Of a stretch of 64,000 nucleotides of DNA, positions 37,225 to 62,778 are shown in pieces. Source of the DNA: Vulcanimicrobiota bacterium (GTDB lineage: Bacteria > Vulcanimicrobiota > Vulcanimicrobiia > Vulcanimicrobiales > Vulcanimicrobiaceae); NCBI GenBank assembly GCA_963714015.1, contig OY970223.1, positions 352,001 through 416,000 on the forward strand, given 5' to 3'. Both the position numbers and the translations under genes were made by a program. A model generated the notes under the pieces. It saw only the letters and a program-made list of their open reading frames with translations, did not search any database and was not told the DNA's origin. Position 1 is the first letter of the stretch; each line of letters opens with the position of its first letter.

Positions 37225-37227
37225 TCC

Positions 37228-37548: not shown

Positions 37549-37560
37549 GCGAGGATTTCG

Positions 37561-42295: not shown

Positions 42296-42310
42296 TTGAG
42301 GACTACGATC

Positions 42311-43054: not shown

Positions 43055-43065
43055 GGAGTACGATC

Positions 43066-44392: not shown

Positions 44393-44403
44393 ATGCTCCA
44401 CAG

Positions 44404-44958
44404 ATGCGCCGAATCGGCCGGAGCGGCGCGCTCGTTCTGGCGATTGCCGCGCTAGCCGACGGCATGATGGTTGGAGCGCATGCCCTGGGCCTGCGCCTCA
44501 ACACGACGCCGAGCATGCCGATGGGGATCTATCGCGTGCAGCCGGCTGGAGGCGCACAACTGCAACGGGGGACAATCGTTGCAATCTGTCCGTCCAGACG
44601 CGCACTGGCGGTCGCGATTCCGCGCCGCTACTTGATGCCGGGACACTGCGCCGGGAACGTCGAGCCTTTACTGAAACACGTCGCCGCCGTTGCCGGAGAT
44701 CGCGTAGAGGTGTCCGACGCCGGCGTCGTGGTTAACGGTACGCCGCTGCCGAACAGCGTTCGTCTGCAAAGCGACTGCGCGGGACGTTCGCTTCCGCGAA
44801 TTCCGTCCGGGCGCTACGTCATTCCCAACGGCGAGGTTTGGCTTTATGCGCCGGTGGCGCGCAGTTGGGATTCCCGCTATTTCGGTCCCACGCCGGCCGC
44901 GAACGTCGTCGGCATAGCGACGTCTATTCTAACGATAAGCCGGACAGCAACTTGCTAA
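44404..44958 (+). CDS. traF: Conjugative transfer signal peptidase TraF (S26, pilin maturation)
   Basis: NTTPSMPMGIY, LLKHVAAVAGD and SWDSRYFGP. Confidence 0.88.
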   Translation: MRRIGRSGALVLAIAALADGMMVGAHALGLRLNTTPSMPMGIYRVQPAGGAQLQRGTIVAICPSRRALAVAIPRRYLMPGHCAGNVEPLLKHVAAVAGDRVEVSDAGVVVNGTPLPNSVRLQSDCAGRSLPRIPSGRYVIPNGEVWLYAPVARSWDSRYFGPTPAANVVGIATSILTISRTATC

Positions 44959-45001
44959 CTACCCGACTGCGGCTGTAGGGCGCGGGTTATGTGGTAGGTG
45001 C

Positions 45002-45384
45002 GTTTACGGGGCTGTCTTTTCAATGACGAAGGCCGGTTCAATCAAGATCCTTTAGTCCTTCAAAAGCTCCGGCGATGCCCACTACCCGCTTGCAGGGCAA
45101 TCCGGCGGCGTCTACGGGCTGGGAGCGGTCTTCGCCGTTACATTGAACGGTGAGGAGCACGTCGTCATAGTTTTTCGGGAAAGAACGGCGACAGTGCGTC
45201 TTCATTCGATATCCCGATCATCGTGAAAGGCGTCTTATACGGCGTAACCTACGCCGGCGGTAAGTACGGAAAGGGTATGCTCTACAGCCTTACGACGAAC
45301 GGCGTAGAACATATCTTACATGCCTTCGGAAACGATTCCGATGGTGCGTATCCGGTCGGCTTGCGCAATGTTAATGGGCGCTAA
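45002..45384 (+). pseudogene. Remnant of a GloVer/TIGR03803-type tandem-repeat protein
   Basis: YGAVFSMTKAGSIKIL*SF...GVLYGVTYAGGKYGKGMLYSLTTNGVEHILHAFGNDSDGAYP; no start, in-frame TAG, apparent internal deletion and a frameshift. Confidence 0.7.
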
Positions 45385-45391
45385 GGCTCTC

Positions 45392-47660
45392 TTAGGCAGC
45401 CGCGGCATCCACGTCGGCCGCGCCGTTCAGCAATTCCGCGAGCTCGTTCAGAACTGCCTCGACGATCGGATGATCGGAGCCCAGTTCGTTTTCGTAAATC
45501 TCCAGGGCGCGGCGATGCAGGTTGGCGGCTTCGGCATGGCGGTTCGTATCCCGCAAGAGACTTCGCAAGCGCGTTGAGATTTGCTGCGACGTGCGGATCC
45601 CGTTCTTCTTTCGAGCGTTCCGCTATGGCCAAACCCAGCCGAAGAAGCTTTTCCGAGTCGAGGAATGCCGCGCGCTTAGCGAGGTAGTTGCCGCAAGCGT
45701 TTGCCAGTCGCGCGCCCGGCGCGAACCCGCTCCCGGCATCGAGTGAAGCGAGCGCCGCGCGTCCGTGCGGTAACAGCCGTTCACACAAACGCCAGGTCGC
45801 AAAGTCGACCGGCGGAAACGCAGATTCGACGGCGCCGACTGCGCTTTGAATCCACGGCTGCGGATCGCTGCCTGCAAACCTGCGAGCCGCCTGCTGAACG
45901 AGCGGATGCATCCGGTAGCTGCGCGTCTCCGGTGAAAAGACGAGCAGCGAAAAACGGTGGAGCGCGCCGAGCGCGTCATCGGTGTGGGCCGCGCTGGCGA
46001 TGCAGGATCGCAAATCCAGCGCCGGCGTTTGGGTTCCCAGGCCCGGCGCAAGACTGCCTGCATAAATTTCCGGCGGTTGCACGAAGAGTTCTTCGGCAAT
46101 CGCATCCGGCGCGAAAAACGACGAGAGTACCAGCAATGCCGCGGCGCCGGGAGCCTCTTCTTCGGCCCGCACGATCGCCTCGCAGAACGTGGCCAAAACG
46201 GCTTGCTGGTAGTCGGCTCCGCGCGGAGCGATTGCCAGATGATCGCCGATACGACCCAGGTACCGGCGGGCGGTCACGTTCGGCGTCGCGCGCAAGTATG
46301 CCGCGGCGTGCGCGACGGCAAGTGGAAAACATTCGAGCCGGCGAGCAATCTCTTCGGCTTCGGCCGCGCCGATGTCGGCGCGTCCAATCTCGCGACACAA
46401 ATAATTTACCGTCTCTTCGACACGCCACGTGTCCAACCAGATCGGACAGACGTCGCCGCTCCAGGCGGAGTATCGTGAGGTCACGATAACATGCGCGCCG
46501 GAAGCGGCCCATTCGCGCAGGAGCCTATCGTCGTGAACGTTATCGTAGATCAGCAGCGCCGGTTTGCCGAACGTATCTAATTCGTTTGCGATCACTTGTG
46601 CGGCAGCGGCTCGGCGATCGCCGGCTTTTTCCAGGTCCGGAACGATCTGCGAACCCAGGCGGACGAGTCCTTCGATGATGCCGGCTTCGTCCTCGGCATT
46701 AAGGGACCAAATAACGCTATAACGATCGCGATTGCGCCGCGCGTATTCACGAGCGATCGCGGATTTTCCGATTCCGCCTAGTCCGTGAACGACGGCAATC
46801 TTGCCTTGATTCCATAACGCATGTTCGATGGCGCTCAGTTCGTCCTCACGGCCGGTGAAACTCGGCGTGATGCGAACGGCGTCCGTTCCCACGATCGACT
46901 CCGGCCGCTGCCGGGGCGCGGCGCCCTGCAGTTCGTCCGCCGATGCGGCGCGGCGATATTCAGCGGTGGTTTCGGCCATGGGAGAAACGCCGAGCTCTTC
47001 TTCGAGGCGTTTTGCGAATTCCTGATACGTCGAGAGCGCGCCCGCCCGATCGCCGCTCGCGTGACGCAGCGCAATGAGCGCACGGATCCCGTCCTCGCGC
47101 CAGGGATCCACGGCGAGCAATTTTTTCGTGTACGCAATTGCTTCGCCGAAGTTACCGCGTTCGCGGTTTACGGAGACGAGGTTGAGCAGCAGCTCGATCT
47201 GACGCTCGCGGAAGCGATCGCGATGCTCCGAAAGCCACTCGTCCTCGAAGCCTTCAAGCAGTTCGCCCCGATACAAGGCAACCGCATCGGCAGCCGTCGA
47301 CGGTTCGGCGCTGCACTTGCGGAACGCCGTGAGGTCGCACCATGCCGGCGCGTTGGGGTTCCACCGAACGGTCCGTTTGTCCGAAAGTATCCAGGGCGCG
47401 TCCGCGGGCGCCGGGGGTAGCGCGTCGTTGACTAAGTAGTAGAGGTGGCGGCGCAAATCGGCGCGGGCGTCGCTCTCCGTGTGGTCGGGCCAGAGGGCGA
47501 AGGCGACCGCGTCGCGGGAGAGCGCCGTATCGGAATGGACGAGCAAGTAAGCCAGGAGGGACAAGGCGCGCTGCGGTGCCTTGAACTTCAAGGGCGCATT
47601 CCCGTCGCTCAGATGAGCCCGGCCAAAAAGATGGATCCGGACGTTTGGATAGTCGATCAA
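45392..47660 (-). CDS. SARP/BTAD activator + NB-ARC + TPR protein (frameshift near the C-terminus)
   Basis: LLAYL...ALWPD, LYRGELLEG, DPWRE (BTAD); GLGGIGKS; last TPR (HRRALEIYENELGSDHP) in the shifted frame ends at TAA 45392. Confidence 0.85.
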
Positions 47661-47766
47661 CGCTGCCCCCCGTGCGCACGGCCCAGGCCGTGCTTCTGCT
47701 CTAGGGAGATCCTAGCCGGGCGAGGGGCGGCCCGACATCGACACCCGCACAGTTAGCCGATACAGT

Positions 47767-50599
47767 TCATCCGGCGCGCGCCTCGCGCCGAAGTCCGTGA
47801 AAGGCTTGCCATACCGTGGCAATCAGCCCGTCCTCGGCCGCCATGGGAATGCCGATGCGGTTGAAATGCATATGGAGCAAGCTGGCGCAAAGCTCGTCCG
47901 AATCGACGGCGAGGCGCCCCTCTCTTCTTTTCGCCATTCCGGAGGATCGGTCAGCATCCCGCGAATTCGCCGGACGCGAGGCCATTGAACGTTACGGGCC
48001 GCGCGCGCGATTTCCCGATTGCGCTCCATCCAACGATCGCCGTCAAAATGTTCGAACCATTGCTGGAGGAAAGCGCCGGCGAAAAGGAGCGACGCGGTGA
48101 CGCGCGACTCCCAAGTCAACGCGGGAGCGGAAGCGATAAACTCCAGCGCACGTCCGCTGTCGACGTGAAAGAGTTGCTCTGCGAGCGGCATCGCAGCCGC
48201 GCCGCCGTAGCGTTCCAGCTCCGGGATGTACGTATCCAACGCGTAGCGCGGTATCAGACCGCGACCGACCAAGGCCGTCAAAGCGCCGGCGAGCCCTGCC
48301 AGCAACGCTTTGCCATCGCCCGGCGTGTGGAATCGAATGCGCAGATGTGGTTGGGGGTCGGCATAGCGCAGAAAGAACCAACGGTCGATGGAGGCTCCGT
48401 TCAAAGACGCAAACAGCAGCGGAATCGATCGGATCAGCCCATCGATCTCCGATGCCGGGCAGTAAAGTTTCGCAAACGCCCACTCACTTCCCGGAGCAAA
48501 GGATTCCGCCGGGCCCGTTTCGGTGAACGCGGCGCTGCGGGCGGGGCGCGGCGCGGCCTGCGGCGCAATACCGGCGACGAACTCGTGCAAATAGCGCTCG
48601 CCGTCCTTAGCGAGCCAGAGGTGATCGAAGTCGGGAAACATCTCTTCCAACCGCAGCTTGGACCCGATTGGATAGCCGTCGTTGCCTGAACCCATTTGAT
48701 CGCGAATCAATTCAACCGATACGGGCGAGTCGAGATCCAAAAGCAGGCTCGAGATCCCGTTCCACGAGATAGACCCATCGCGGCACGTTCCAGCTTTCGC
48801 GCCAGTGCTGCAGGAACCGGTTCAAATCGTCTTTATGCGCGAACAGTTCTTCTCTCGTGAGCGTCCATACGGCCGGAGCGAGCACGAGCCTTTCATAGCG
48901 GACGCGCGGAGTGAACGGCATTTGAGCGGCGAAACCCCATGACCACAAGCGCGGAAGAACGTGATCTTGTTTTCCGATCATCGAAAGCAGCCGCATGTGG
49001 GGCGGCCCGAAGTAGGTCACCTGCAGCATGTAACTTTCTTTAATGAGCAGCCTGCGTTTGAGCGTGCGCGAATATGCGACGAATCGCGTACCTTCCAGGC
49101 CAATCAGAATATCGCGCGGCTCGATGCGGACGACACCGGCGGGCAATCGCTCGCGCCGGCCGGCCACGGCATAGCCGCTCGCAGGCACTTGCAGCAAACC
49201 GGCATAGTGCTGATCGTGCGGCGTGAATACGAGTTCGACCGGAAGCGGCGCATTGGGATCGGCGTCCGAGGACTCTTGAAGTGCGCCCGCGTCGATGTCG
49301 AGCGCTTCGGCAAACCGGTGGACCGTTTTATACGTGCCGTCCGTGGCCAGTCCGTGAACGGGACGAATCAGATAATTTCCCTCATCGAGATCCGCCCGAT
49401 CCTTCGCCGCGATTTGAAAACCGATCTCGCAGCCGTTCGTGCACGATGAACTCTCGGGCTGCAATCCGAGAGGCTGCAGATCTTGCCGCTTCAGCACGGC
49501 CTCTCGGCATCCGTCACGCAGTGCGCGGGCGATCAGGCGGGCTCGCAGATCGTCCTTTACTGCATCCGGCGCATCGGGCAGGTCCATCGGATCGTCCGGT
49601 GCTCCGATTCCGGAATCGGGGTCGACGAGTTCGAGCAGCGGTATGCGCCTGGAGTCGCCTTCGTAGCGCTCCATGAATTTGGACCGATATTTGGCGAGTA
49701 CCCGGGGACGCGCATTTGCAGTCATCAATGAAGCAAGAACGCTTGCGTCGGAGATCACTCGTTCCCCGAGCGCTCCTTCAAATGACTGAATCATGTTGAC
49801 TTGCGTGCCGGCCGGAACGCGGGCAGCGAAAATTTCAGTTGCGGCTTGCGGCGCTCGTTCGGGCGGTTCGCAGCCGGAAGGCCGCGTAAAAATCAGACAC
49901 CCGATATCGAGCAGCTTGTTTGTAGAGCTGTTCGGCGGCAGCCGGCGGCATTTGCAGCCTGTCGCACAAGGCGGTGCGCAGATCGCGCAGCGGCCGGTCG
50001 ATCGACGCGATCCGCAATATCTCCTCGAGCTGAGCCGACCAGCGAACGTTGAGCGGTTCGTAGTGCAGAATAACCGGATCGGCCGTATCCAAGCCTCGAC
50101 GCAGCCGCTCGGGGTGCCGTATGTGCAGCCGGTCGCCCCGCAAGACCAGCAAATCATTGGCGACGACCGGCAGATCTTCGCGTAACGTCCGATCGCTTTC
50201 ACTTGCCGCCAGTGCTGCATGCGTTTGGGCCGGATCGGTCGCCACGAATAGTTCGGGCGCCCGCGACGAAAGCTGCAACGTGGACGCGGGTCCTTGCTGC
50301 ACAACACCCGTGCCGGCAAACAGGCCGAACGGCGTGCTGCGGGTCGCCATCCGAAGCGCATAGGCGAGGGCCTTCAGCGGCGCGCGTTTCTTCTTTGCGG
50401 CGCCGCCGCGGCTCCACCTTTTGAGGCTTTCATGCAAGCTCGGCGACGCCAGAGCGATCGCCGCATCGAACAGTCCGGACTCGCGCAGCAGATCGCGCGT
50501 TGCCTCAAGCGGATCCGCCGCAGCGAAAATGTCGCGCGCAACGCGTGCCGGGAACATCGGAACCCGTCCGGTCAGCAGCACGATCCGGTTCTTGCGCAT
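47767..50599 (-). CDS. lanB: Full-length lantibiotic dehydratase (glutamylation + elimination domains), 3 frameshifts
   Basis: YALRMATRSTPFGLFAG; FTPRVRYERLVLAPAVW; HEFV; WFFLRYADPQPHLRIRF; YIPELERYGG; SLLHMHFNRIG. Confidence 0.88.
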
Positions 50600-50926
50600 C
50601 TAAGGACCGACCACCGTCACGCTTCCGCGCATGTACGGATGCGGTTCACAGTAATAGTCGTACCGGCCGGCCTTGTGAAAGGTCGTCGTCCAGGACTTGT
50701 GCCAGTCGATCGGTCCCGAATCGATCGATTCCGCCGCTTGCGCGGTCACGGTGTGCGCTTGTTCGTCCTCGTTGACGAACGTCACCGAATCACCGACGTG
50801 AACGCGCAGGTTTTCGGGATGGTAACTATAGTCCGCGATGTGTACGACGTAATGGTGGTGGTTCGACGCACCCGGAGCGGCCGCTAGGAGCAGCACCGCG
50901 GCGATGGACGAAAGAAGTATTTTCAC
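50600..50926 (-). CDS. Cupredoxin (amicyanin/plastocyanin-like blue copper protein)
   Basis: Signal peptide; AHTV and YYCEPHPYM type-1 Cu ligands. Confidence 0.9.
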   Translation of the reverse strand: MKILLSSIAAVLLLAAAPGASNHHHYVVHIADYSYHPENLRVHVGDSVTFVNEDEQAHTVTAQAAESIDSGPIDWHKSWTTTFHKAGRYDYYCEPHPYMRGSVTVVGP

Positions 50927-50947
50927 GAACGATCCCTGCCTTTTCTT

Positions 50948-52645
50948 TTAAAGAGAGAACACGTAGAGTTTGCCGCCTCGAGGCACGTGCGCGGTCAATT
51001 GCGCAGCAGGCCCGCCGAAAGCCGCGAGTCCGCCGCCATATCCGCAGTAAACGGCCACGTACTGTTTACCGTCGACCATATACGTTACGGGCGGCGCAAC
51101 GATTCCCGATTGGAGCTGCTGATGCCAGAGCACCTTACCGGTCTTTGCATCGAAGGCGTAGAAACGGCCGCCCGCATTTCCGCTAAATACCAGGCCGCTC
51201 GCTGTGTCGAGCACGCCGCCGGTCCAAGGATAATCGCTGGGGTGCGTCCACACTTTTCGCCCGGTCAGCGTGTCGATGGCGCTCAATTCGCCGAAACCGT
51301 GCGCACCGGGTTCTGCAACGGTCAGGGACACTTCGCCGAAATAGCCGAACCGTTCGCGTAAATTCCCCGTTCCGGTTACTTGCGCGCACAGGTGCAATAT
51401 CGGAACGTACGCAAGTTTCGTCACCGGACTGTAGGCCATCGGATACCAGTTCTTGCCGCCGCCCGAACTAGGGCAGTCCAGCACCGTCTTGCCGACTTGC
51501 GGGTATTTTTGCGGATCCAGTATTGCCTTGCCTTGCGAGTCGTATCCGAGAATCGTGTTGTTCTTTACAAAGGGCCGAGCGTAAATGAGTTTGCCGCTTC
51601 GGCGATCGATGGCGAAGAAGTATCCGTTGCGATCCGCGTGCACGATTGCCGGAATACGGCGTCCGCCGCGCTGCAGTGTAACGAGCACCAGTTCGTTGAC
51701 GCCGTCGTAATCCCAAGAATCGTGCGGCGTATATTGGTAATACCACTTCATCGCACCGTCCGACGGGTCGAGTGCGAGCAGCGAATCCGTAAAGAGGTTC
51801 GCGCCGGGACGCTTTCCGCCGAACCACGGACCCGGATTTCCGGTTCCCCAAAACAACGTGTTGGTCTGCGGATCGTATGAACCGGTAACCCACGTGTCGC
51901 CGCCGCCGCGTTTGTACGCACCAGCGGGCCAAGTATTTCCTCCGGGTTCGCCGGGCGACGGAACGGTCCATCGCTTCCATAACCGCCGGCCCGTCTGCGC
52001 GTCGAATGCCGCTATGAACCCACGCGCGCCGAATTCGCCTCCGGCCACTCCGGTGATAACGCGTCCGCCTACGACGAGCGGCGCGCCGGTGATGGCGTGA
52101 TCTTTTCCGACCGCGACGACTTGACGGCTCCAGACGAGGCGACCGCTTTGCGCGTCGAGCGCGATCAAACGATCGTCGATCGTTCCGAGGAAAACATCGT
52201 TTCCATAGAGTGCTACACCGCGGTTGACGACGTCGCAGCAAACCGCGCGCAGCGCTTGCATGGAGATGTTCGGCACGTATTTCCAGAGTACGCGTCCGCC
52301 GGCTGCGTCCAGCGCGATCACGGTATCCATCGGCGTGGTGATGAACATCGTGCTCCCGTTGACCACAGGCGGAGATTCGTGCCCCTGCGGCAAGCCGGTT
52401 ACGTACGTGAATGCGACGTGAAGCGATCGAACGTTGGAGGGAGTGATCCGAGTGAACGGCGCGTACGCGCGGCTGTCGTAAGAACGGCGATACATCAGCC
52501 ATCCGTCGTCGCCGCCGGCCTCGAGAAGGCGAGCGTTGGTAACACTTGGATAGTCTTGATTCGCGCGGCCGTGGAGAGCCAACGGTCCCCAGAACAGTAA
52601 GACCAGAAAACCGCAGCAGAGCAGGAAGCGCCCTATCACTTTCAA
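50948..52645 (-). CDS. PQQ-dependent alcohol dehydrogenase, lanthanide-type motif (ExaF/PedH/XoxF-like)
   Basis: Signal peptide; CCDVVNRG vicinal Cys, GGEFG, WGTGNP and HDSWDYDGVNE; TTG start overlaps the upstream TGA. Confidence 0.9.
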   Translation of the reverse strand: MKVIGRFLLCCGFLVLLFWGPLALHGRANQDYPSVTNARLLEAGGDDGWLMYRRSYDSRAYAPFTRITPSNVRSLHVAFTYVTGLPQGHESPPVVNGSTMFITTPMDTVIALDAAGGRVLWKYVPNISMQALRAVCCDVVNRGVALYGNDVFLGTIDDRLIALDAQSGRLVWSRQVVAVGKDHAITGAPLVVGGRVITGVAGGEFGARGFIAAFDAQTGRRLWKRWTVPSPGEPGGNTWPAGAYKRGGGDTWVTGSYDPQTNTLFWGTGNPGPWFGGKRPGANLFTDSLLALDPSDGAMKWYYQYTPHDSWDYDGVNELVLVTLQRGGRRIPAIVHADRNGYFFAIDRRSGKLIYARPFVKNNTILGYDSQGKAILDPQKYPQVGKTVLDCPSSGGGKNWYPMAYSPVTKLAYVPILHLCAQVTGTGNLRERFGYFGEVSLTVAEPGAHGFGELSAIDTLTGRKVWTHPSDYPWTGGVLDTASGLVFSGNAGGRFYAFDAKTGKVLWHQQLQSGIVAPPVTYMVDGKQYVAVYCGYGGGLAAFGGPAAQLTAHVPRGGKLYVFSL

Positions 52646-54894
52646 CGCACCGTCCCCCGGCCGCTGCGAATTTCGTAACGGATCGACCACGTGCGCGCAA
52701 TCGGGACTCCGAGGAATTGAACGGATCCGCTCGTCGTGGGGGAAGCGGCAGCGAACGCCGGAGACGTAAACCTTCCGGCATCCTCGTTGAACAAGTTTTG
52801 CACCGAAAACACGATCGCTCCGTTATTGACGTTGAAACGAATGCCGGCCGAAGTACTACTGTACGCCGGCAAGTGCGCTGCGTTATTTGCGTCGACGAAA
52901 GCCGTTCCTACTCCAACGGTTACCGCCGGAGTGTGGTATGAGAATATCGCGCTCGCGCGATGCAGCGGCACGTTCCAGATTTGCGAGCCTGGGATCAGCG
53001 TTGAATTCTCGCCCGCAGGGAGCGCCGGCACGCCGGCAGCCGTCGCCGCATACGTCTCATAAGCCACGGCAAGATTGAAATTAGCGCCTAACGGCGAGTT
53101 GACGGAGGCGTACCATTCCTTGTCGACGCGCAGCGGCACGGTTACGTAGTGCATGAGATACAAATCGCTTGCGGTCAGCGGGCCACCGCCGCACAAGTAA
53201 GCGTATTGCTCGTTGAGTGCTTGCAAATAGCCGGACGGCAATGCGGCGCCCCCGGCCTGGGCGGCGACAACTAGCGCATCCTTCGTCGCGTCGTAAAATC
53301 CGCCGAGCGTGACGTTCGCCCTTCGCAGGCGTCGCGTTATCGCAGCCGTGACTCCCGCGCTGTGCGGGGGGTCGGGCGTGACCTGGCTCGGGCCGGAGGC
53401 GTAAGCGGCGTGCGAGCTGCAGTCGAAATCGGCAGCTCCGGGCACGGCAAGGCGGAGCGCCTGCGCGTAATACGTTTCGATGGTCTGTGTTTGCGCGGTA
53501 TATGCGTCCCACTTTAAGCGCGTAGCGTTACTCCAAGCCGAACCTTCGATGGATGCATTGACGTGCGCAGCCGCGAATGCTCCGGTTCTCGCGCCGAACT
53601 GACCGTCCCGGTGACCGACGACGAACGGCCGGTGCGATTGTAACTCATTGAGGCCGTCGTTCCGGAGCTTTTCGAGACCGTTTCAAACGGCTGTGCGTAC
53701 GCATCGGCTATCGTTTCGGTGTTGCTGAGCGAGAGCGTTGCGCTGTTTTGCCCGAAGCGCCGCGTAAAATTCAACATGTCGTAGCGTCCAGAGTATCCGA
53801 ACCCGGTGTAGTCGGAATCGGCGTTCCTTCCGCCAGCGCATCGATGTCGTCATCGTCCGCCGAACCGGCATACGCGACGTGCAGCGCAGTCCAATCGTCA
53901 CGTCCGCGCGTTTGCGCCGCGCGAATATAGCCGTCAAGCATTCGCGTCCGCTCGGTGTTGCCCGGGCCCGAACCTTCCGCAATCCCGCCGGGATCGACCA
54001 GCGAGAGTTGTGCGTTACGCCGGTCACTGCCCAGTGCCACTGCACTCACGCGAGCGCCGCCCAACCGGAATTCCACGTCCGCAGAGGCGGCCAGCTCGTG
54101 TTCGTTCGCCGAATGATCGTAGGCCGCTCCGCTTTGATCGAAAAACGTTTGGCCCGCAAGGGCGCCTTCGCCCAAGCGATCGGAGAGCACGAAGGCATAG
54201 TTCGGCCCCGTCAGCGTTCCTTTCAGCGCTTCATCGCCTTGCGATCCGCTCAGGATCGAGAGCTGCTGCTGCGGCGTGCCCGTCGGGCTTTGAAGATGAA
54301 GGTTCGGCGTAATCGAGCCGTCATCGGCTTGATCCGGAGTGAACGATTCGACGAGATCGCTTGGAACCGTAAAACGCGATTCCTGGCCTGTAGGGAGCGT
54401 GAGCGGCGTGCCGTTCAGTTCCAACGGTCCGGATCCGCCTTCGGATGCAGAGCGGTAATTCGGCACGAAATTCAGCGAATCGGTCACGCTGCCGCTGATG
54501 ATTGCGGCGACGCTCGCGGTGTTCGTCTGCAGCGCCCGAGCGGGAGCTTGGCGACGACCGAATCAATCGTTCGCAGCCCGAACGTCAAATCGAGCGTCGG
54601 ACTGTCGGCGACTTGTACCGGCGATGCGCCGTCTTTGCGCCGTGCAAAGATCGGAGTGCCTGCGACGGTTTCGACAGTCGCCCGCCCGTCGGATCCCGTG
54701 ACGCCGATATATCGCTCGGCGTCGCGGTCCTTCGCGTAAATCGACGCCGCGGAAACGGGGTGGCCCGTCGCGTCGCGCACGAAGACTTGCACCGTCATCA
54801 GTTGCGGACTTTGAACCTGGCCTGCCGATGCGGTCCCGGCAAGAGAAGCTGCGAGAGCAACGGCGCTCAGCACGTAACAAAGAAGCCTAGCCAT
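52642..54894 (-). CDS. TonB-dependent-receptor-like outer membrane protein (several frameshifts)
   Basis: Signal peptide; carboxypeptidase-regulatory-like N-domain (VRDATGHPVSAASI); beta-strand-rich body; C-terminal SVQNLFN...PIARTWSIRY. Confidence 0.65.
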
Positions 54895-55631
54895 AGCAAG
54901 CGTTTTCGTTACGGCGATATCCCCAAATAGCCAGTGCACCGAAGAGCGTTGCGTAAATCGCCAACGTCACGAATGCCGTCACGGTCGAGGGGTCTCCGCC
55001 AACGGCCGACCACACCAGCTCGCCGTATTGACGGGTCGGGCTGAACGGTGAAATCGCAGCGACTACCGGCGGCAGAAACTGCGGCGGAAGCCACAGCCCG
55101 CCGATGAACGCAAGCGGCAAGTAGGTGAGATCGGTAATGGGCACCGACGTCTTCGGGCTGGTCCAGTAGCCGATTGAAAGGCCCATGACGCCGAAAACGC
55201 CTCCGCCAATCAGTAGTGCAACGGCAAACCGGAGCCAAGCGACGGCGGATAACGTAACGTGTCCGAGCAGAATCGCGCAAGCAATGACCAGCGCCGCCGT
55301 CGCGGTCGCGAAGATCAATGCGCAGACGAGGCGCGATGCGACACGCACGCCGGCGCCCAGCGGCAGCGTCCGAAGATATGAATCCAGACGGACGCGCGAT
55401 CGTGCGCGATTCCGACGCCGAATTGAAAGAGCGCAACGCCGATTACCGCGAACACAGCGTACGATGCCAGCGCGTAACGAGCAGATCCGCGTTCTTCGAG
55501 TACGCCAATCCGAAGAATACGTAAAGCATCGTCGGAAGGGCAAGCGACGGAACGGAGTACGCCGGCACCCGCAGCAGTTCCAAAGTAGAAAATCGTGTAT
55601 CGAGCCAAAAGTTTCTGAGCGTCTCACTCAT
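54887..55631 (-). CDS. ABC-2 exporter permease (frameshifted)
   Basis: ELLRVPAYSVPSLALPTMLYVFFG...LRTLP...YLPLAFIGGLWLP...LP. Confidence 0.8.
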
Positions 55632-56478
55632 GATGCCCTCCAACCATTCTCAAGAAGACGTCCTCGAGCGAAGGCGCGGCGATTTCGAGATCGCGATAAG
55701 GGATATTTCTCTAGAACAATTCGCGCACGACCGCGTCGGGGTCGGAAGTAACGATGCTGTACCGGTTTCCGGCGATCGTCGCATTGGCGATTGGCGCCGG
55801 AACGGTATCGCTGGTGAAGGAAACTTTGCGAGCGCCGGACTGCGCGGATCGCGGCGATCGGCGCGTCGTCAAGACGCGTCCACAGGACATGACTATCGCG
55901 CGCGAAGCCAACGCTTCGGCTTCCTGCAGGTAATGCGTCGTGAGCAGAACGGTTGTTCGGCTTGCGACGATTCGGAAATCGCATGCCACACGCGCGCGTC
56001 TTCTACGTCGAACTGGTTGTGGGCCGTCCAAGACGACGAGCTGCGTTTCCGGTAATGCGAGCGCCGAACTGAGCGCCGCTGCTCGCGCCGCTTAGGCCGC
56101 AACTTGGCGGCGCGCGAGTTTCGAAAGACGAAACGCTCGAGCAGCGCGCCGAGCGGCACAGGATTCCGCGCAGCGTCCAAACGTAGCCGGCGACTCGCAG
56201 ACGTCATGGCGGCCGGCAGTCGTTGTTTTGCTGCGTAACCGATCAGACGCCGCGTGCGCATGGAAAGAGGCCGCTCTCCAAAGACGCGCACGTACCGCCG
56301 TCGAACGCCAGCTCCAGCACGCTGATCGTCGTTGTCTTACCGGCGCCGTTAGGTCCAGAAGCGCTACGCGTCTCCTGCTTTAATGTCGAACGAGACGTCC
56401 TTTACGGCGGCGGCTCCGCCGTAGGATTTGTGCAAATTGCGCACGGCGATGACTGTTTCAGTTTTGAGCGATATACAC
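55628..56478 (-). CDS. ABC exporter ATP-binding subunit (many indels)
   Basis: VRNLHKSYG...GPNGAGKTT; VLLTTHYLQEAEALA; SLEDVFL. Confidence 0.75.
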
Positions 56479-56479
56479 G

Positions 56480-56998
56480 GGATAGGTCCCCTTTCAGATT
56501 TAGGCGCGCGCTTTGCGCAAGCACGATCTCGTTATAGGTGACGTGCGCGACGATCGCCGCGCCCACCGAACGGTGAGCAGCGCAGCAGACGAAGACTAAG
56601 CCGTCGCCGGATGGTGCGACGCGCGCGGATTGACGACGCGTGCATCACGCAAATCCGGCGGTCGTCAGCAGCAGGGCAGCTGCGGACATGGCCGCGCAGT
56701 TCACGCCAGCCTCTCCAGATGATCTCTTCGGACGCCGCAACGACCGCAAGCGCCGTTCCGGTCAAGGCAAACTTTCGAAGCGTTGCGGCGTCCGCAAAGT
56801 ATGGAGGCTTCGGAAGCCGCCGAACAACACGGCGTAGAGCGCCGCGCCCATCAGAGCGCCGAGCAACAGCAGCGGCAGATCCGAAGACATCCGTGCGGTT
56901 ACGCTTGCGTCGATCGCCAAAATTGCGGCGGCGACGATCGCCTGCAGCACGAATCCGGCAAGTACGACGTTGCTCGTTGCGGCAGCATTACCGAACAC
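56480..56998 (-). CDS. CPBP (Abi/CAAX) intramembrane metalloprotease (many indels; ends approximate)
   Basis: Hydrophobic segments; EEIIWRG and AHVTYN motifs. Confidence 0.65.
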
Positions 56999-57803
56999 AT
57001 GCTACGCTGTAGATGATGCCTTCGTTGACGCGTCGTTGTTGAGCATCGCGTCGATGTCTTTTTCGTAAAAACGCCGAGCGGAAGCGCGCCAAGCCCAGCG
57101 ATATCGCAGTCAGCAGAGCGTTTTGCGCAACATGGCCGGCCTCGAGGATCGTAAACGGTACGCGCGCAGGCGGTATTTGAGCGGCAGCGCCAAAACGCCG
57201 CACTTATCAGCAGAGTGATGGACGAGGTGTCAACGGCCTCCGGATAGATGCACGCTTCGGCCAGCTTGCGTAGGCGATCTCGGAGATTCGCACGAGACGG
57301 TGATCGGGCGAATCGTAGAAGTAATGCCGCACGGCAGGCCGTCGACGCGATGCACCGCGACGTAGTTGTCCAGCGGGAACAGCCGCCGCCGGAAGGCGCC
57401 GTGCGGAGAAGCTGCTGGCCGCACCGTTCTTGAGTTTGACGCGCTTGGTCACGCCGTAGGCCGAGACAAGATCGTCGCAACTTGCACGAGCGTTATCGGC
57501 TTGGAGAGAATGATTGACTTGACCTGCGCCGCTGCAAGAGGTCGCCGAGCGTCGTGTCCCCGATTCGGGCGCCGGCAGATCCACGGAGGAAGATGCCGGA
57601 TTCGCTTCGAGGACCGCAGGGTGCTAATCAGCGCGTTCGGATTGGTCTGGATCAAGTATGCATTGGTTTGACGCAACGCGCGCGAACGGTAGAGGCTGGA
57701 GGCCTCGTGATAGCACTCGGCCGGATCGTCAAACAGTCTTCTGCGCGACGTCTTCACTGCCGTAAACCAGTTCGAGTGCGTTGATCGTTCTGTATTTCGT
57801 CAT
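56988..57803 (-). CDS. SagB/ThcOx-type FMN azoline dehydrogenase (many indels)
   Basis: YHEAS N-terminus; PS.G..FPL-like segment; ILEAGHVAQNALLTAISLGL. Confidence 0.75.
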
Positions 57804-57815
57804 TTTCTCTGCCTA

Positions 57816-59155
57816 TTAAGGAAAGGGATGCGGAAAATGGTTGATCTCGTGGGGGTCGAGCCGCCGTCCCAGTAAACCTTCGGACACGCCGCCGGTGTAG
57901 ATGCGATCGATTCCAAGGAAACGGTGGGCGTGCTCGGAGTCTATCTGGCACAGCTCAGGACAGAACGCTCGCACAACGCGCAGACCGAGTTGCCGCAAGT
58001 CGGGGGCGGTGACGTCTACGGCGTAGACTTCCATTCCGCGCTGTCCCAAGCGGTTTACGATCGCGTCAATCTGCTCGCACACGGAGGGCCCGCTTACCGG
58101 CGGGACTTCCCTCACGTGCCGGCTCTGCGTCGCCGAGTCCATAAACGCCGACTCTTCGCCATGCGAGCCAAAAGCGTGCAGCGCCACATGGTCTTCGAAA
58201 TCGCGGACTTGCGAAAAATCGCCGTCGGGCTCGGTCCAATCAGGATTGAGAAAGCGCATTTGCCGCGCCCAGGCATATGTCTGGAATGCTTCGCGCACCG
58301 CTTTGCCGGCAGCGTCGATCATGGTTCGCGCGCTCGCGGCGCCGGTCGCGAGTTGCACATAGCCGGTTTCGTCGCGCACGAGCGCCATCGCACTGGGCAC
58401 GTCGCAGAAAGGCGACAAGTCTACGACGGTGTAGCGCAACCCCTTGACGTTATAGTACGTATCGTGATTGAGTTCCATCTCGGCAACTCCGGTACAATCG
58501 ACGATCGGCATCGAGAGCCGCGTGTACCACATCAGCAAAAACGCGTCGCGTTCGACCAGTTCGTATAAGCCCGACAGCAGCGCCTCTTCAAACGTGGGCG
58601 CGCAGGCAACGCCGGAACTCGTGCTGTAGACTACGCGCGGCTCTTCCGGCCGGCGATGTTCGGGCAGATAGCAAAACGCCGAAGGGATCCAAACGGCCTC
58701 ACCCGATCGCAGGTTGGTTCCACGCACCCAGTGCGCCGGCGTGTCGTCGTCGAAGGCGACGAACTTGTCGGTCGTTTCGTATTGCGCTTTCGAAAAGAAG
58801 TTCAAATGCGCGGTAGGCACATGCGGGCCTTCCAGCTCGCGCGCCGTCGAAAAGTGGAGTCTTCGAGCGGAACGTACGAGAGCGAGTACCGCTCTGCCGC
58901 CTCTCCAAGCGCAGCGGCCAACGCCCGGTCGCGGTGCGGATGAATTCCGCCGCTATACAGCGGAACCGAGGCGCCGATGGTCAACTGCGAATCCGCCGCC
59001 AAGCACGTGACGTGCCACATGCGCGGATCGCTGGGCTGGGCCATCATGTGAAAGCGCAGATGCGCGATGCCGGTATACGGCGAGAGCAATTTCTTGAGGA
59101 CCGGCAGCGATTGCTCGAGCGGGGTCACGCCGCTGGGCCGCTTCAACGTATCCAT
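57816..59155 (-). CDS. YcaO cyclodehydratase, azoline-forming (frameshift near 58850)
   Basis: LSPYTGI, ALGEAAERYS, STSSGVAC, LYELVERDAF and C-terminal PHPFP. Confidence 0.92.
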
Positions 59156-59157
59156 GA

Positions 59158-60104
59158 TTAGCTCTCGTACCAGGGCGACGGGGCGGCAACGTTCACGCGG
59201 CCGGAACATTCTGGACAGCGCGGTACGCGTAAGACGTCGTGCGATGAGATCCCGCGATCGCCGAGCGGCGCAAGCGAAATCAGCGTTCCGACCAGCGCTG
59301 GATCGGATGCACCGATCCAGCGCAACGCGTACGTGACGGCGAGGCCGGCAGCCATCATATCAATGGGCATGCATTGCTCGAACGCCGCCTCGGCTTCGTC
59401 GAGCTCAGATACTCCGCGGGGTACTTCACATTGGAAGCGCGCCGCAGTTGAAAGCAGGCGTAACACGCGGTTTCGCCCGGAACGAACAGCGGCCCGATTG
59501 CGGAGAACCGTCCATCGTATGGAAGAATCTGCAGCCACGGCTGCTTTTTGAGGATCGCGGCCTTGTTGATTTCCCGCAGGCGGCTCAACTCGCCCGTCGC
59601 CGGAGCGACGATTGCGAGATCGACTTCCTCGTCGTCAAAACTGGAGAAACTCGAGGTTTGCGCGCCCTCTATTCCGGAGCACAAGAGTCCCCGGAGAACC
59701 TCGCTCGCAGCATTGCTGGACCCTATGACGGAGATGCGCGCGCTTGCGAGGCGATCGCGGACGATTTCGGTCGAGCTTGCACCCCCGATCGATGAGAAGA
59801 AGACGGAAGTGCGCGTCAGCTTATCCTTTTCTGCGGGAAGCGTTCCGTCCATGAGCAGATCGTAGCGTTCCAGCAAACCGATCGCGGCATTGACGACCTG
59901 CGCATCGCTTCCGGAAATCGAAGCGATGTCTTCGACGCTGTGCCGCCCGTCCAGCACGGGCAGCAACTTTGGAAGGATCGCGCCGGCAGCGCGGCCCTTG
60001 AGGCAGATGACCGAGTCGCCGTAGTGGAAGATTACTTGGTCGTCATGCTTGTAGACGCGATACCAGGGTTTGAAGGCTTTGGTTGGCGCAATAGGATCCG
60101 TCAC
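59158..60104 (-). CDS. TOMM leader-binding (RRE + ThiF/E1-like) protein (frameshift near 59405)
   Basis: LDGRHSVEDI RRE; IGPLFVPGETACYAC; VLRVPRCPEC; GTG start after GAGGAG. Confidence 0.88.
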
Positions 60105-60153
60105 GTTATAACTCCTCGGTGAAACGGGGTATAAGAGAGCTGACACCCGGGCC

Positions 60154-60201
60154 CCGGGGGACGCGAGTTTGCCGCGATAATCGACAAACTTGTGCCCCCG
60201 G
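60154..60201 (-). terminator. Long imperfect hairpin between the precursor and the first enzyme gene
   Basis: ccggggg-acgcgagtttgccg / cgacaaacttgtg-cccccgg. Confidence 0.5.
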
Positions 60202-60218
60202 TTGAAGTGTGCTGCTTC

Positions 60219-60356
60219 CTAGAGAAGCGACACTTTGCAGGTTGTGGACGACGTGCACGTGCTGCTGGCAGCCAGACCCGTTGCATCTTCGTCACCGCCG
60301 ATTTCGGTTACGCTTACGTCGAGCAGTTGGTCGATGTTCTCGGTGATTTGTTCCAT
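60219..60356 (-). CDS. RiPP precursor peptide (45 aa)
   Basis: AAGGAG RBS; MEQITENIDQLLDVSVTEIGGDEDATGLAA-SSTCTSSTTCKVSLL, an acidic leader plus Ser/Thr/Cys core directly upstream of the E1 and YcaO genes. Confidence 0.9.
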   Translation of the reverse strand: MEQITENIDQLLDVSVTEIGGDEDATGLAASSTCTSSTTCKVSLL

Positions 60357-60426
60357 GGTTTTCTCCTTCAGTTGTGTTGTGGGGTTTTTTACAGGCCGGA
60401 CGCTCGGAGCGCGTTGATCCTGCATC

Positions 60427-61075
60427 TTATTGCGACAATTCCCACTGGTAGTTGATGGGAATGTCGGTGTACGTGTGCACGATTTCATGCACGTCGAAAT
60501 GCGTAGCGCTAAAAGCGCCGTTGAGAAAAGCGAGTCGTCCGTTGACCTTGACGTCTTCGCCCACGGTGAATCCATGCGCGATCACGATGTTAGAGTACGT
60601 TCCCGATACCGTCAGGCTGGCGCGATCGCCGGCATTCTGCGAGACGACTTTGACCGGCACGTTTTTCCACTCGGTTTGCGAAACTTTGACCGGCACGACT
60701 GCGCTCCAGACGGCATGCGCAGGCTCTAAGGTTGGCGATATTCGTTCGCAGCACGAGCGGGATCGTGTTGTAAATCGTTACGATGTCGGACGGCGTTCCG
60801 GGCGATACGATCTCGCCGTCGGCGCTTACGGAAGCGTCGAGCGTATTGGTGGTTCCGTCCGTTCGGCGATAGGAAACCACTGCGCGATTCGAACCGGACT
60901 CGGCGACATGCAGAGGACTGGAGAGTGTCGTCGCTCCTCCGTCGGGCGAAACGTGCCCGACATAGTGGAAGTTCAGTGCGACCGAGTCGCCGGCGGCGTC
61001 TACGGGCGGACGCAGCGCTTGCGGCGCGGCGGTTCCGAGAAGAGCCGCGGCCAAAAGTACGGGAGAGATTCTCAT
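60427..61075 (-). CDS. Secreted hypothetical protein, paralog 3 (frameshift near 60725)
   Basis: AGGAG RBS, MRISPVLLAAALLG signal; continues into ORF 60427-60696. Confidence 0.65.
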
Positions 61076-61082
61076 GATGACG

Positions 61083-61771
61083 CTACTCCTGTTCCGGCGC
61101 GGTGCGCGCCATATGCCACTCCAGCGCATCGTTTGCGTCTGAGGTCCGGCGTTAACGAGTTCACTGGCGGCAAAATCGCAGCGATCGAATCCGGCCGGCG
61201 CGACGCGCAGCGCGAATTGGGCGGTGACGTCGATTGGAACGGTATATCCGGCGTAGGACGCAGTAAGCGTCTGCGAACCGGTCCCCTGAATGACCGCTCC
61301 GCCCGACCCGGCCGAGACGATCTTCAGTTGCACGGGCAGATAGCCAATCTGCCCGGAGTCACCGGTCTCGATCGGAACCTGTCCGTTCCACGTCGCACCC
61401 GGCTGCAGCAAAGGAGGCGCGCTCGCAAGCAGACCCGCAACCGTGTTGAATGAATCGATGCGGTTGCCGGCATCGCCCGAATCGATCGTCCCGTCGGCGG
61501 CGAGTTTGCCTGCCGCACTGGCGTTGTCGGTCGACGATTTTCCGGCCGTGACGATCCGAACCGAGCGCGCGTTTCCCACAGTAATCGTCGCGGTGCGATC
61601 GAAGACTACGCGCTGACCGTTCCAAAACGATCCGTCAAACTGCAGGTCGTACGAAATCGAGACTCCCGGCGAAGACGGTAAAAGTATGTGTGGGGCGCCG
61701 GCGACCGAACCTGCCGCGGTTGCGAGCAACCCGGCGAGCGTTGCGCTCGCGCCTCGCGTGAGGGCGTTCAT
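61083..61771 (-). CDS. Secreted hypothetical protein, paralog 2
   Basis: ATGA overlap with the upstream gene; signal peptide; likely ends ...WHMARTAPEQE* after an indel near 61120. Confidence 0.65.
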
Positions 61772-62511
61772 GAGTTCTTTCCTTTCAGATTGACTGTCCA
61801 GTGATACACGCCGCCGCCCGCCGGTACGTTGCGGCGCCCGTAGGTCTCGCGAGCGTACAAAGCCGCGTTCGTCAGCGTGCCGGCACGAAAAACCGCATTG
61901 ACGGAGACGGCGATGTCCGCAGTCAACGGGCTTCCGGCCGCCCCCGCTTGCAATCGGCGTTCGCCTTGTGCCGTAAGCGTTTGAACGTTGCCGTCCTCGC
62001 GCACGGAAACTCTGACCGGAACTGGCGCCGTCAGCGTATTGGATATCCAGCACATGGTCGTTGCGCGCCAGGTCGAACCGGCGACCGTCGAATCCGAATG
62101 CCCGAGCAGCGAGAGCAGCTCGTTGTAATCGAAGACTTGATCCGCAACACCTGAGGCGGTGTCGGGAACGACGATTCCAGCCGAGCCGAAATGCGCTTTT
62201 ATTGCGTTCGAGGTGCGGCTTTCGCGCTTCACGCCCAGATGCAGAATCTCGTCCTGCGTTACGCGGTCGTTCCGCCCGCTGACGATTACGGCGCCCTGCG
62301 CAATCTGCTTGAGATCGAGCAGGCCGAGATAGCGCTCGGAGTAACCGCCATAATCGGCTGAAAAGTCGAACACGTACGAAGCCGACGTCCCAGTGCCGCT
62401 CGGTAGAATATGCAGGCCGCTCGTTGGGAGCGCGACGGAGCCGCCGAACGTCCAGGTGAGGACGGCGATGCCGGCGATCCGGCCGAGGCGGTGGGCGCGC
62501 GAGTTTTTCAC
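61768..62511 (-). CDS. Secreted hypothetical protein, paralog 1
   Basis: GTG start 7 nt after the small-peptide stop; signal-like N-terminus; beta-rich. Confidence 0.65.
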   Translation of the reverse strand: MKNSRAHRLGRIAGIAVLTWTFGGSVALPTSGLHILPSGTGTSASYVFDFSADYGGYSERYLGLLDLKQIAQGAVIVSGRNDRVTQDEILHLGVKRESRTSNAIKAHFGSAGIVVPDTASGVADQVFDYNELLSLLGHSDSTVAGSTWRATTMCWISNTLTAPVPVRVSVREDGNVQTLTAQGERRLQAGAAGSPLTADIAVSVNAVFRAGTLTNAALYARETYGRRNVPAGGGVYHWTVNLKGKNS

Positions 62512-62518
62512 AGCAAGC

Positions 62519-62659
62519 CTACGGGTTCGGCTCGACCGTGTCGAACGGCCGCAGCACATGACCGGCGTGTCCGGTGTACGGATGGACCGTGAACTGCGCT
62601 TGGGCGGCGTGCGGGTGGACCAGCAGTAAGAATAAGAACAGAAACGCTTGCATCGTCAT
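62519..62659 (-). CDS. Small secreted peptide (46 aa), not in ORF track
   Basis: AAAAGGAG RBS; MTMQAFLFLFLLLVHPHAAQA-QFTVHPYTGHAGHVLRPFDTVEPNP*. Confidence 0.7.
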   Translation of the reverse strand: MTMQAFLFLFLLLVHPHAAQAQFTVHPYTGHAGHVLRPFDTVEPNP

Positions 62660-62778
62660 CACTCCTTTTGTGATGCGATGATAGGAGCGGCAGACTTACT
62701 GCGTATCTAGCGAATTCTTAGGCAGAGCGCTAACTATGAAGTTAACTAGGGGCCTGACTATATGCGATTCACCACTGG

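Follow-up and report, generated by a model that had tools for sequence, protein, structure and literature searches.

The window analysed here is a stretch of 64,000 nucleotides from the genome of a Vulcanimicrobiota bacterium (assembly GCA_963714015.1, contig OY970223.1, positions 352,001 to 416,000), and its minus strand carries what is probably a genuine cluster for a ribosomally made peptide with post-translational modifications (RiPP), of the TOMM (thiazole/oxazole-modified microcin) or LAP (linear azole-containing peptide) type. The cluster lies beside a conjugative element in a bacterium with two membranes; its product would be made by the pathway proposed below, and the many breaks in its reading frames would mostly be errors of the assembly consensus. 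The best reading of the gene content is a predicted streptolysin S-type linear azole peptide system combined with LanB dehydration, with a goadsporin-like chemistry and without membership in the goadsporin family. Literature searches, which left subscription journals and MIBiG outside their scope, found no description of this gene set, in agreement with the first-pass annotation of the window, which had proposed an undescribed system.

Gene organization and recurrence of the cluster

The first-pass annotation had named ten gene types in one co-directional, tightly packed operon at 47767-60356, and all ten were found there on the minus strand, with intergenic distances from overlap to 72 nucleotides. 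They encode a precursor peptide, an E1-like partner protein with a RiPP recognition element (RRE), a YcaO cyclodehydratase, a SagB-type dehydrogenase, a CPBP protease, an ABC exporter, a TonB-dependent-receptor-like protein, a pyrroloquinoline quinone (PQQ) dehydrogenase, a cupredoxin, and a LanB dehydratase. The conserved cluster extends upstream to about 62559 and includes three genes, termed Usp, that the annotation missed. Listing and translation of the open reading frames (ORFs) between 44 and 64 kb showed that the minus-strand reading frames switch frame repeatedly, and most genes were therefore searched as fragments. Pfam matched 11 of the 29 submitted fragments (YcaO, two pieces each of Lant_dehydr_N and Lant_dehydr_C, PQQ, Copper-bind, BTAD, and weakly ABC2_membrane and CarboxypepD_reg); the NCBIfam run covered 28 of them, with the regulator omitted.

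An alignment of 14 YcaO homologues was used to gather 80 metagenome and 80 species-genome loci, and the window fragments were compared with 163 loci by tblastn; a scan of genome contigs with a single YcaO fragment gave no relative, and the alignment-based scans succeeded. The same gene order was found in loci L007, L072, and L005/L085, with every gene of L007 intact. A receptor profile was run over 401 genomes of the phylum, including the genome of the window (G000) and 15 unpublished genomes counted only as non-carriers. Full-length matches (E 1e-100 or better) occurred in nine genomes, that of the window and eight of the 400 others, all of one family, and the other 286 positive genomes gave only partial matches to receptor-like proteins of about 1100 residues. 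Comparison of 20 kb around the eight other receptor orthologues extended the set, so that the order E1-YcaO-SagB-CPBP-ABC-receptor is present in 8 of the 11 other loci (L007, L072, L085/L005, L195, L196, L197, L199, and L200, where the ABC genes follow the receptor). Usp genes are present in all 11, and a related Cys/Ser/Thr-rich precursor lies beside seven of the eight loci with the full order. This recurrence of the architecture cannot be chance.

The gene set that had been annotated as a unit stands in part. The receptor and Usp genes are nearly always found with the YcaO set; LanB and the dehydrogenase are common without being constant, the cupredoxin occurs in the window only, and the Usp genes had been overlooked. 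A YcaO gene lies within about 10 kb in 11 of the 12 receptor loci, the window included. The exception is L198, which has receptor and Usp with no YcaO seen within 11 kb upstream. In L201 and L202, receptor and Usp are joined to a different YcaO lineage (26-28% identity); receptor plus Usp may be an accessory that azole peptide clusters of this bacterial family have more generally. Of these two receptor-Usp loci (L201:1-8726 and L202:5346-13432), L202 has its own Cys-rich precursor.

Azole-forming enzymes, protease and exporter

The azole-forming enzyme set proposed in the annotation, namely E1/RRE, YcaO, and SagB, is real, and together with LanB it makes an azole/dehydro peptide the natural prediction. 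The E1/RRE gene (59161-60146) lies in two frames with one frame break. Its two pieces reach 27.8 and 21 bits against TIGR03882, both below the cut-off of 36.9 because the gene is split; the intact orthologue of L007 scores 45.5 bits. An AlphaFold2 (AF2) model of the L007 protein (predicted local distance difference test, pLDDT, 81.8) has three N-terminal strands and three helices followed by an E1-like fold, and Foldseek matched it over about 320 columns to LynD (E 4e-17), TruD (5e-17), and MccB (8e-14; TMq 0.68).

The YcaO gene (57816-59155) also occupies two frames with one break and ends in PHPFP. PF02624 was matched at E 3e-56, and the larger fragment scored 243.2 bits against TIGR03604 (cut-off 219.25; 269 bits in L007). 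Among 8000 scored candidates, this fragment has 166 homologues at E 1e-10, the closest being 444-460 residues long and 79-46% identical, and the two fragments jointly span intact homologues of 444-446 residues from end to end. The nearest solved structures are MusD, LynD, and TruD.

The SagB-type dehydrogenase, predicted to use flavin mononucleotide, is the most broken gene of the cluster (56991-57803; 13-14 frame breaks), and none of its window fragments matches any Pfam or NCBIfam family. Frameshift-aware alignment to orthologues recovers it, with 159 of 259 residues identical to the L007 protein, which itself belongs to PF00881 and scores 154 bits against TIGR03605 (cut-off 78.4). The CPBP intramembrane protease (Rce1-like, SagE-type; 56438-56992; two breaks and one stop) is the weakest call of the window: tblastn gave 42% identity over 40 residues (E 2e-4), and read-through identity is 68 of 178 residues. 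Its L007 orthologue matches PF02517 with 60.4 bits.

The exporter consists of one ATPase and one ABC-2 permease. The ATPase gene (55630-56516) has 3-12 frame breaks, the count varying with the penalty; NCBIfam recognized a DrrA-like piece in the window, and the orthologue matches PF00005 and TIGR01188 (186 bits). The permease (54887-55631; two breaks) is 57% identical to that of L007 and matches PF01061 with 20 bits, compared with 47 bits in L007. No SagF was seen.

Precursor peptides

The precursor gene (60219-60356) is intact and lies 72 nucleotides upstream of the E1 gene. It encodes 45 residues, MEQITENIDQLLDVSVTEIGGDEDATGLAASSTCTSSTTCKVSLL, with the Cys/Ser/Thr-rich core ASSTCTSSTTCKVSLL, and it is the sole such ORF in its genome. 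The core has ten contiguous Ser/Thr/Cys residues after an Ala, as against up to 12 in relatives, a comparison based on pattern matching only, and it holds only two Cys residues. Against the thiopeptide precursor model TIGR03892, the window precursor scores 18.6 bits, below the cut-off of 25, and the precursors of L007 and L085 gave no match.

Related precursors occur next to the YcaO genes in nine other loci, namely L007, L085/L005 (two copies), L006 (two copies), L072, L195, L196, L197, and L200, and none was found in L199. The cores are ASSCCCTSSTCCHINIS in L007, ASSTCTSSTCCSVVVV and ASSTCTSSTCCKIIVV in L085 (representing the two copies each of L085, L005, and L006), ASSCCCSACCCCVHINTD in L072, ASSCSCSCSCSVVIEVNVS in L195, ASSCCSSSSCCCCHSVF in L196, and ASSCCCSSSCCCCSSGGSNQSLSA in L197; L200 has a run of eight Cys residues. 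In L196, the precursor (15923-16081, minus strand) is not placed before E1: it lies in opposite orientation to the PQQ dehydrogenase and downstream of it.

The leaders of these precursors have a motif, (D/E)LLD(L/V), that also occurs in Actinomycetota loci with E1, YcaO, and ABC genes but no receptor or dehydrogenase. These relatives (Gaiellales, Thermoleophilia, and others; L010, L011, L086, L091, L092, L099, and L108) have Cys-rich precursors upstream of E1 with an ELLDL leader motif, and they lack Usp as well. The precursors of the window (60219-60266), L007, L085, L072, and L196 carry short, mostly aliphatic tails after the last Cys, such as KVSLL, KIIVV, SVVVV, HINIS, and HSVF. Such aliphatic tails recall the substrates of CAAX-type proteases, and the cluster encodes a CPBP protease; this connection is only an idea.

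LanB dehydratase

The last gene of the operon (47767-50599) encodes a full-length class I LanB dehydratase with glutamylation and elimination domains. In the window, the N domain (PF04738) and the C domain (PF14028) are both present, over four frames of one gene span with three frame breaks. In L007, LanB is a single protein of 993 residues, with PF04738 at residues 20-653 and PF14028 at residues 729-967. The C-terminal domain matches TIGR03891, the "thiopeptide-type" elimination domain, and the nearest solved structures are 5EHK (E 4e-58) and NisB (4e-27). The window, L007, L072, L196, and L197 have LanB within the cluster or next to it. The genomes of L195, L200, and L202 contain only 31-33% identical LanB copies on other contigs, and no LanB was found in the genomes of L199 and L201. 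As LanB is absent near some loci, with distant copies or none in those genomes, dehydration would not be a constant feature of the cluster family.

Receptor-like outer-membrane protein and Usp proteins

The receptor-like gene (52642-54891; three frame breaks) was assigned by structure and features. The gene encodes a signal peptide, a CarboxypepD_reg-like domain, a plug-like segment, and a long C-terminal region with a predicted barrel; the L007 orthologue is a secreted protein of 751 residues. No match to PF07715 or PF00593 was obtained at E 0.01 in the window or in L007, and those to CarboxypepD_reg and TIGR01783 are weak. The ESM Atlas model of the L007 receptor aligns to CarboxypepD_reg/Plug/TonB-barrel clusters with TM scores of 0.69-0.79 over 570-694 residues (feature score 0.98). 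The label "TonB-receptor-like" therefore appears fair for the modelled protein, though sequence models fall short of it. The receptor family is small: at E 1e-5, only 10 of 5.8 billion proteins fall into it, and none of them has a name or a Pfam domain. For at least four receptor homologues, the contig has the same length as one that carries a YcaO homologue (11300, 98162, 159371, and 947304 bases). By name, one homologue belongs to Candidatus Elarobacter and two others to Dongiaceae and Limnocylindrales, and the Atlas neighbours of receptor and Usp are mostly Vulcanimicrobiota. A typical, lipopolysaccharide-containing outer membrane is described for the phylum's one cultured member (PMC9758169), and an outer-membrane component therefore makes sense in this host.

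The three Usp paralogues stand upstream of the precursor: UspA (61768-62559), a secreted protein of 263 residues; UspB (61078-61771), with two possible frame breaks near its end; and UspC (60430-61081), with one frame break. UspA is 32% identical to UspA of L085 (tblastn, E 7e-25), UspB is 45% identical to UspB of L007, and a C-terminal motif of UspC is common to L085, L006, and L007. Three copies are present in the window and in L085, and the gene occurs in L007 and all other loci. The orthologues matched no Pfam or NCBIfam family, and a profile of 17 Usp sequences found 146 representatives at E 1e-3 and 41 at 1e-30 among 1.84 billion. An AF2 model (pLDDT 91.5; predicted TM score, pTM, 0.84) has about eleven long strands and one helix, forming a barrel around the helix. 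VIA-align placed it near the lipovitellin N-domain (Z 11.8; 180 residues, root-mean-square deviation 3.4), ApoB (Z 11.4), autotransporter barrels (Z 11.2; 162 residues), and LolA (Z 8.4), and Foldseek against the PDB gave weak matches only, the best being a LolA-superfamily protein (E 4e-4, TM 0.24). Judging from the model, Usp would be either a soluble carrier or a small membrane barrel. Towards their C-termini, the receptor (52645-52700) and the Usp proteins alike have a strand-like aromatic motif (for example W.LRYEF or W.W.L), which a few extra residues follow, so that the aromatic residue is not terminal.

PQQ dehydrogenase and cupredoxin

The PQQ alcohol dehydrogenase gene (50948-52690) is intact. 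The protein scores 577 bits against TIGR03075 (methanol/ethanol family; cut-off 480) and matches Pfam PQQ at E 3e-79, its nearest solved structures being 6ZCW and 6ZCV (E 3e-117). It is the only one of 18 TIGR03075 matches in the genome above the cut-off. An extra Asp is tied to lanthanide binding, and an Asp/Ser distinction separates the enzyme types (PMC5487730, PMC10875860). The metal-site motif of the window enzyme is WDYDG, the same as in the XoxF structure 6DAM and close to WDFDG in 6OC5, compared with WDFSG in the calcium enzyme 1FLG. The dehydrogenase is accordingly predicted to be lanthanide-type by the extra Asp two residues past the catalytic Asp. A search for pqqC (TIGR02111) in the genome found none; it lacked a positive control, since none of 14 control genomes gave a match either.

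The dehydrogenase gene is directly downstream of receptor/Usp in the window, L007, L072, L195, L196, and L197. It is absent from that position in L199 and L200, and the L085 locus ends too soon to show it. At E 1e-120, 45 of the 401 genomes contain homologues: six of the nine with a receptor orthologue and 39 of the 392 others (Fisher p 9e-5, an overstated value since the genomes are kin). A tree was built from the six cluster-linked sequences and 20 picked from the matches of 44 other genomes, the rest being left out. The cluster-linked enzymes fall outside two well-supported clades, which hold the second copies of two of the genomes (G376 and G330), and a single origin of the cluster-linked enzymes would still be compatible with this tree.

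The cupredoxin gene (50600-50926) is also intact and encodes an amicyanin-like protein (PF00127, 45 bits; TIGR02657, 56 bits, below the cut-off). It had no tblastn match in the 11 other loci and was rejected as a conserved part of the cluster, being present in the window only. In L197, a cytochrome c gene (15821-16276, plus strand) directly follows the dehydrogenase, where the window has the cupredoxin.

Frame breaks

When the whole cluster (14.8 kb) was aligned with the L007 proteins in a frameshift-aware manner, it showed about 43 frame breaks and three in-frame stops. The counts are one each for E1 and YcaO, 14 for SagB, two plus one in-frame stop for CPBP, 12 plus one in-frame stop for the ABC ATPase, two for the permease, three for the receptor, three for LanB (where the alignment also passed through the gene's own stop), two for UspB, one for UspC, and two for the PQQ dehydrogenase, the last being a doubtful pair in the signal peptide. 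Repetition with other references and a harsher penalty gave 13-14 for SagB (four only with the most distant reference and the harsh penalty), 3-12 for the ATPase, and one for YcaO; the body of the PQQ dehydrogenase, which served as a control, had none. Nearly all breaks are single missing bases (13 of 14 in SagB), and larger deletions were not observed. Once the breaks are bridged, SagB shares 61% and YcaO 54% identity with the L007 proteins. A search for public sequencing runs covering 50400-60399 listed none.

Breaks also occur elsewhere in the genome, which is a single contig of 3.56 Mb with a completeness of 89.6%. The rpoB and rpoC genes are each split over two frames (G000:C1:2035484-2038733 and 2063474-2066972, outside the window), and truncated genes in the window include those for a peptidase S41, VirD4, and a molybdopterin oxidoreductase. 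Since rpoB and rpoC are also split and the read-through similarity to orthologues is undiminished, the frame breaks are most likely to represent consensus errors of the assembly rather than decay.

Proposed pathway and alternative explanations

According to what is known of these protein families, the RRE/E1-like protein would bind the 45-residue precursor via its leader, and YcaO would convert Cys, and probably some Ser/Thr, of ASSTCTSSTTCKVSLL to azolines, which SagB would oxidise to azoles. The full-length LanB would dehydrate leftover Ser/Thr to dehydroalanine and dehydrobutyrine. The CPBP protease may then trim the peptide, removing the leader or possibly the aliphatic tail past the last Cys, and the ABC-2 pump would move the product out from the inner membrane. 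Its further handling, in the periplasm or at the outer membrane, may fall to the TonB-receptor-like protein together with one to three Usp proteins, either for export or for re-uptake. The lanthanide-type PQQ dehydrogenase, found in about half of the relatives, would be a linked periplasmic redox module, with the cupredoxin as a putative electron acceptor here.

Several points weigh against this picture. The CPBP call in the window consists of a 40-residue match and position, and LanB is absent from the sampled neighbourhood of L195, L199, and L200. Because the organisms compared are kin, common descent makes the synteny look like stronger evidence than it is. The cluster-linked dehydrogenases are not resolved as one clade, the tree needing two label changes, and the window enzyme is 52-54% similar to non-cluster copies compared with 56-57% to cluster-linked ones. 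Finally, the break density is roughly ten times that of rpoB and rpoC (one each in about 4 kb), and the breaks are concentrated in SagB and the ABC ATPase.

This density and concentration leave some room for local decay, that is, for a decaying pseudogene array with real frame breaks from which no peptide is made. The 13-14 breaks of SagB are robust to reference and penalty, and a cluster that lies beside a conjugative element and is missing from two genomes of the same genus could be dispensable cargo. Such decay is nonetheless unlikely: nearly all breaks are single missing bases without larger deletions, the read-through identity of the broken genes is no lower than that of the least-broken ones, essential genes are split too, and a completeness of 89.6% for one 3.56-Mb contig fits an indel-rich consensus. 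The precursor, dehydrogenase, cupredoxin, and regulator are, in addition, intact. A second alternative concerns the outer-membrane and redox genes, which might form a separate alcohol-oxidation module of receptor, Usp, dehydrogenase, and cupredoxin, a mere neighbour of the peptide cluster whose receptor would import a lanthanide or PQQ. The dehydrogenase does look like an ordinary type I enzyme (6ZCW, E 3e-117) with its own acceptor, cupredoxin here and cytochrome c in L197; the pqqC search mentioned above, which had no positive control, gave no match; a TonB-dependent PQQ importer appears in the reference list of PMC10875860; and dehydrogenase homologues occur in 39 of the 392 sampled genomes that have no receptor orthologue. 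This alternative is judged rather improbable, because receptor and Usp keep the YcaO/SagB set where no dehydrogenase is adjacent (L199, L200, and L202), because YcaO lies within about 10 kb of all receptors but that of L198, and because the tiny receptor family shares contigs with the YcaO family. Conserved synteny supports the proposal of the annotation that the outer-membrane and redox genes belong with the cluster.

Regarding the product, a macrocyclic thiopeptide or pyritide, or a lanthipeptide, instead of a linear azole/dehydro peptide, is very unlikely. The weak match of the precursor to TIGR03892 and that of the LanB C-domain to the "thiopeptide-type" model TIGR03891 speak for it, as does the core start (I/A)ASS, which we take to be reminiscent of thiostrepton-type cores. 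The precursor score is, however, under the cut-off, and the single PF14028 domain is fused to the LanB N-domain, with neither a separate [4+2] cyclase-like protein nor a LanC in the window and the intact loci. The thiopeptide and lanthipeptide identities were rejected, given the lack of a cyclase in the window and the intact loci, and the precursor score below the cut-off. The linear azole/dehydro peptide could in turn act as an azole metallophore, exported by the ABC pump, loaded outside the cell with a lanthanide or copper, returned through the receptor, and handed over by Usp in the periplasm to the dehydrogenase and, here, the cupredoxin. This idea is based on a report that TonB-dependent transporters, when encoded in a biosynthetic cluster, are taken to predict a metallophore (PMC10875860), and it is regarded as quite unlikely. 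Metal binding by the window peptide is pure conjecture.

Genomic context

Two regulators bracket the cluster, both on the minus strand. A LuxR-type regulator with TPR and GerE domains (62782-64000; PF00196 GerE 54.7 bits, TPR_12) continues past the window end, and an intact SARP/BTAD-STAND regulator (PF03704, 75.6 bits) lies at 45381-47660. Large LuxR-type regulators are present also in L072 and L197, and regulators resembling the SARP-STAND one in L200 and L007. Guanine-cytosine content is even over the region (0.57-0.64). A promoter/terminator scan of 45000-64000 gave fewer sites than in shuffled sequences, none of them usable, and a tRNA scan found no tRNA gene in the window.

Conjugative type IV secretion genes, assigned by family matches, lie beside the cluster on the plus strand (34699-44958): a VirD4 fragment, VirB11, VirB2, VirB3, VirB4, VirB8, VirB9, and a fusion of VirB10 with a signal peptidase S26 domain. 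Comparison of 28000-47700 with two genomes of the same genus gave short scattered DNA matches only, without synteny, and the YcaO was not found in either genome. A horizontal arrival of the region would fit this lack of DNA synteny. Elsewhere in the window, a second large STAND regulator (helix-turn-helix, NB-ARC, and TPR; 28931-31519, plus strand) lies upstream of the conjugation genes, a GH92 mannosidase of 1178 residues is fused to a beta-propeller (20679-24212, minus strand), and two pro-kumamolisin-type protease genes are adjacent at 5981-10084 (plus strand).

Comparison with known systems

In streptolysin S-type systems, the dehydrogenase SagB, the E1 partner SagC, the YcaO SagD, the CPBP protein SagE, and an ABC exporter act on a precursor whose core has an N-terminal run of heterocyclisable residues (PMC4513790). 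The window cluster resembles them in its precursor with a heterocyclisable run, SagB, SagC-like E1, SagD YcaO, putative SagE-type CPBP (clear in L007 and weak in the window), and ABC exporter, and its relatives carry cores such as ASSCCCSSSCCCC. It differs in its two-membrane soil host, in the added full-length LanB, TonB-receptor-like protein, Usp, and PQQ dehydrogenase, in a window core with only two Cys residues, and in having one permease instead of two and no SagF.

Thiopeptides and goadsporin are described as the two main classes that combine azoles and dehydro residues, both with split LanB enzymes (PMC10676384). The chemistry predicted here is that of goadsporin and spongiicolazolicin (PMC10676384): YcaO, a dehydrogenase, and a dehydration step of the LanB type would give a linear peptide with azoles and dehydroalanines. 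In place of a split LanB, the window family has one protein (993 residues in L007). The term "goadsporin-like" used in the annotation consequently holds for the predicted chemistry and fails for the gene set, which is streptolysin S-type, with a full-length LanB and no goadsporin-specific genes seen. Neither an acetyltransferase nor an Ffh-like immunity gene, which we take to be goadsporin genes, was seen in the window, and to our knowledge CPBP, receptor, Usp, and dehydrogenase are not part of the goadsporin description.

Dehydrazoles such as carnazolamide also combine Ser dehydration with azole formation on Ser/Thr/Cys-rich cores, using a LanM-type DUF4135 protein fused to a cyclase domain and long NHLP-like leaders (PMC10676384). 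The hybrid chemistry is shared with the window cluster; the dehydratase is of the LanB type here and of the LanM type there, and the outer-membrane and PQQ genes have no counterpart in the passages of that paper on dehydrazoles. Thiopeptide clusters likewise use YcaO, a dehydrogenase, and LanB-type dehydration on Cys/Ser/Thr-rich cores, and the TIGR03891 match of the LanB C-domain is a further likeness. They differ in their separate [4+2] cyclase (a stand-alone PF14028 protein) and split LanB, and the window precursor is below the cut-off of their family. Unlike in class I lanthipeptide clusters, no LanC-type match was found among the cluster fragments or flanks.

The layout presumably resembles that of methanobactin operons, which we take to combine a heterocyclic ribosomal peptide and an exporter with a dedicated TonB-dependent receptor and periplasmic binding or redox proteins. 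The modifying enzymes differ, presumably being MbnBC there as against YcaO, SagB, and LanB here. The dehydrogenase resembles the lanthanide-dependent PedH and XoxF enzymes in its TIGR03075 score above the cut-off, its closest structures 6ZCW and 6ZCV, and its WDYDG motif, and it is distinct from them in being embedded in a peptide cluster behind a receptor gene, with a cupredoxin as neighbour in place of a cytochrome c.

Provided that it is functional, the cluster would define a new azole peptide sub-family in a phylum of which very few members have been cultured. That a lanthanide-type dehydrogenase is repeatedly linked to it gives a lead to a physiological role beyond antibiosis, and were the metallophore reading true, the peptide would be the first known metallophore made by a YcaO enzyme and, apart from the methanobactin and bufferin types, the first ribosomal carrier of lanthanides or copper. 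For an azole peptide, it is unusual to have a constant, private TonB-type receptor and a new family of barrel proteins, which raises the question of passage through the outer membrane, or re-uptake, in a two-membrane producer. The combination of a streptolysin S-type kit with a full-length LanB would differ as a solution from the split LanB seen in goadsporin and thiopeptide systems, with a bearing on the way in which Ser and Thr residues are divided between YcaO and LanB. The set of receptor, Usp, and dehydrogenase is what places this family apart from every azole peptide system known to us or found in the searches.

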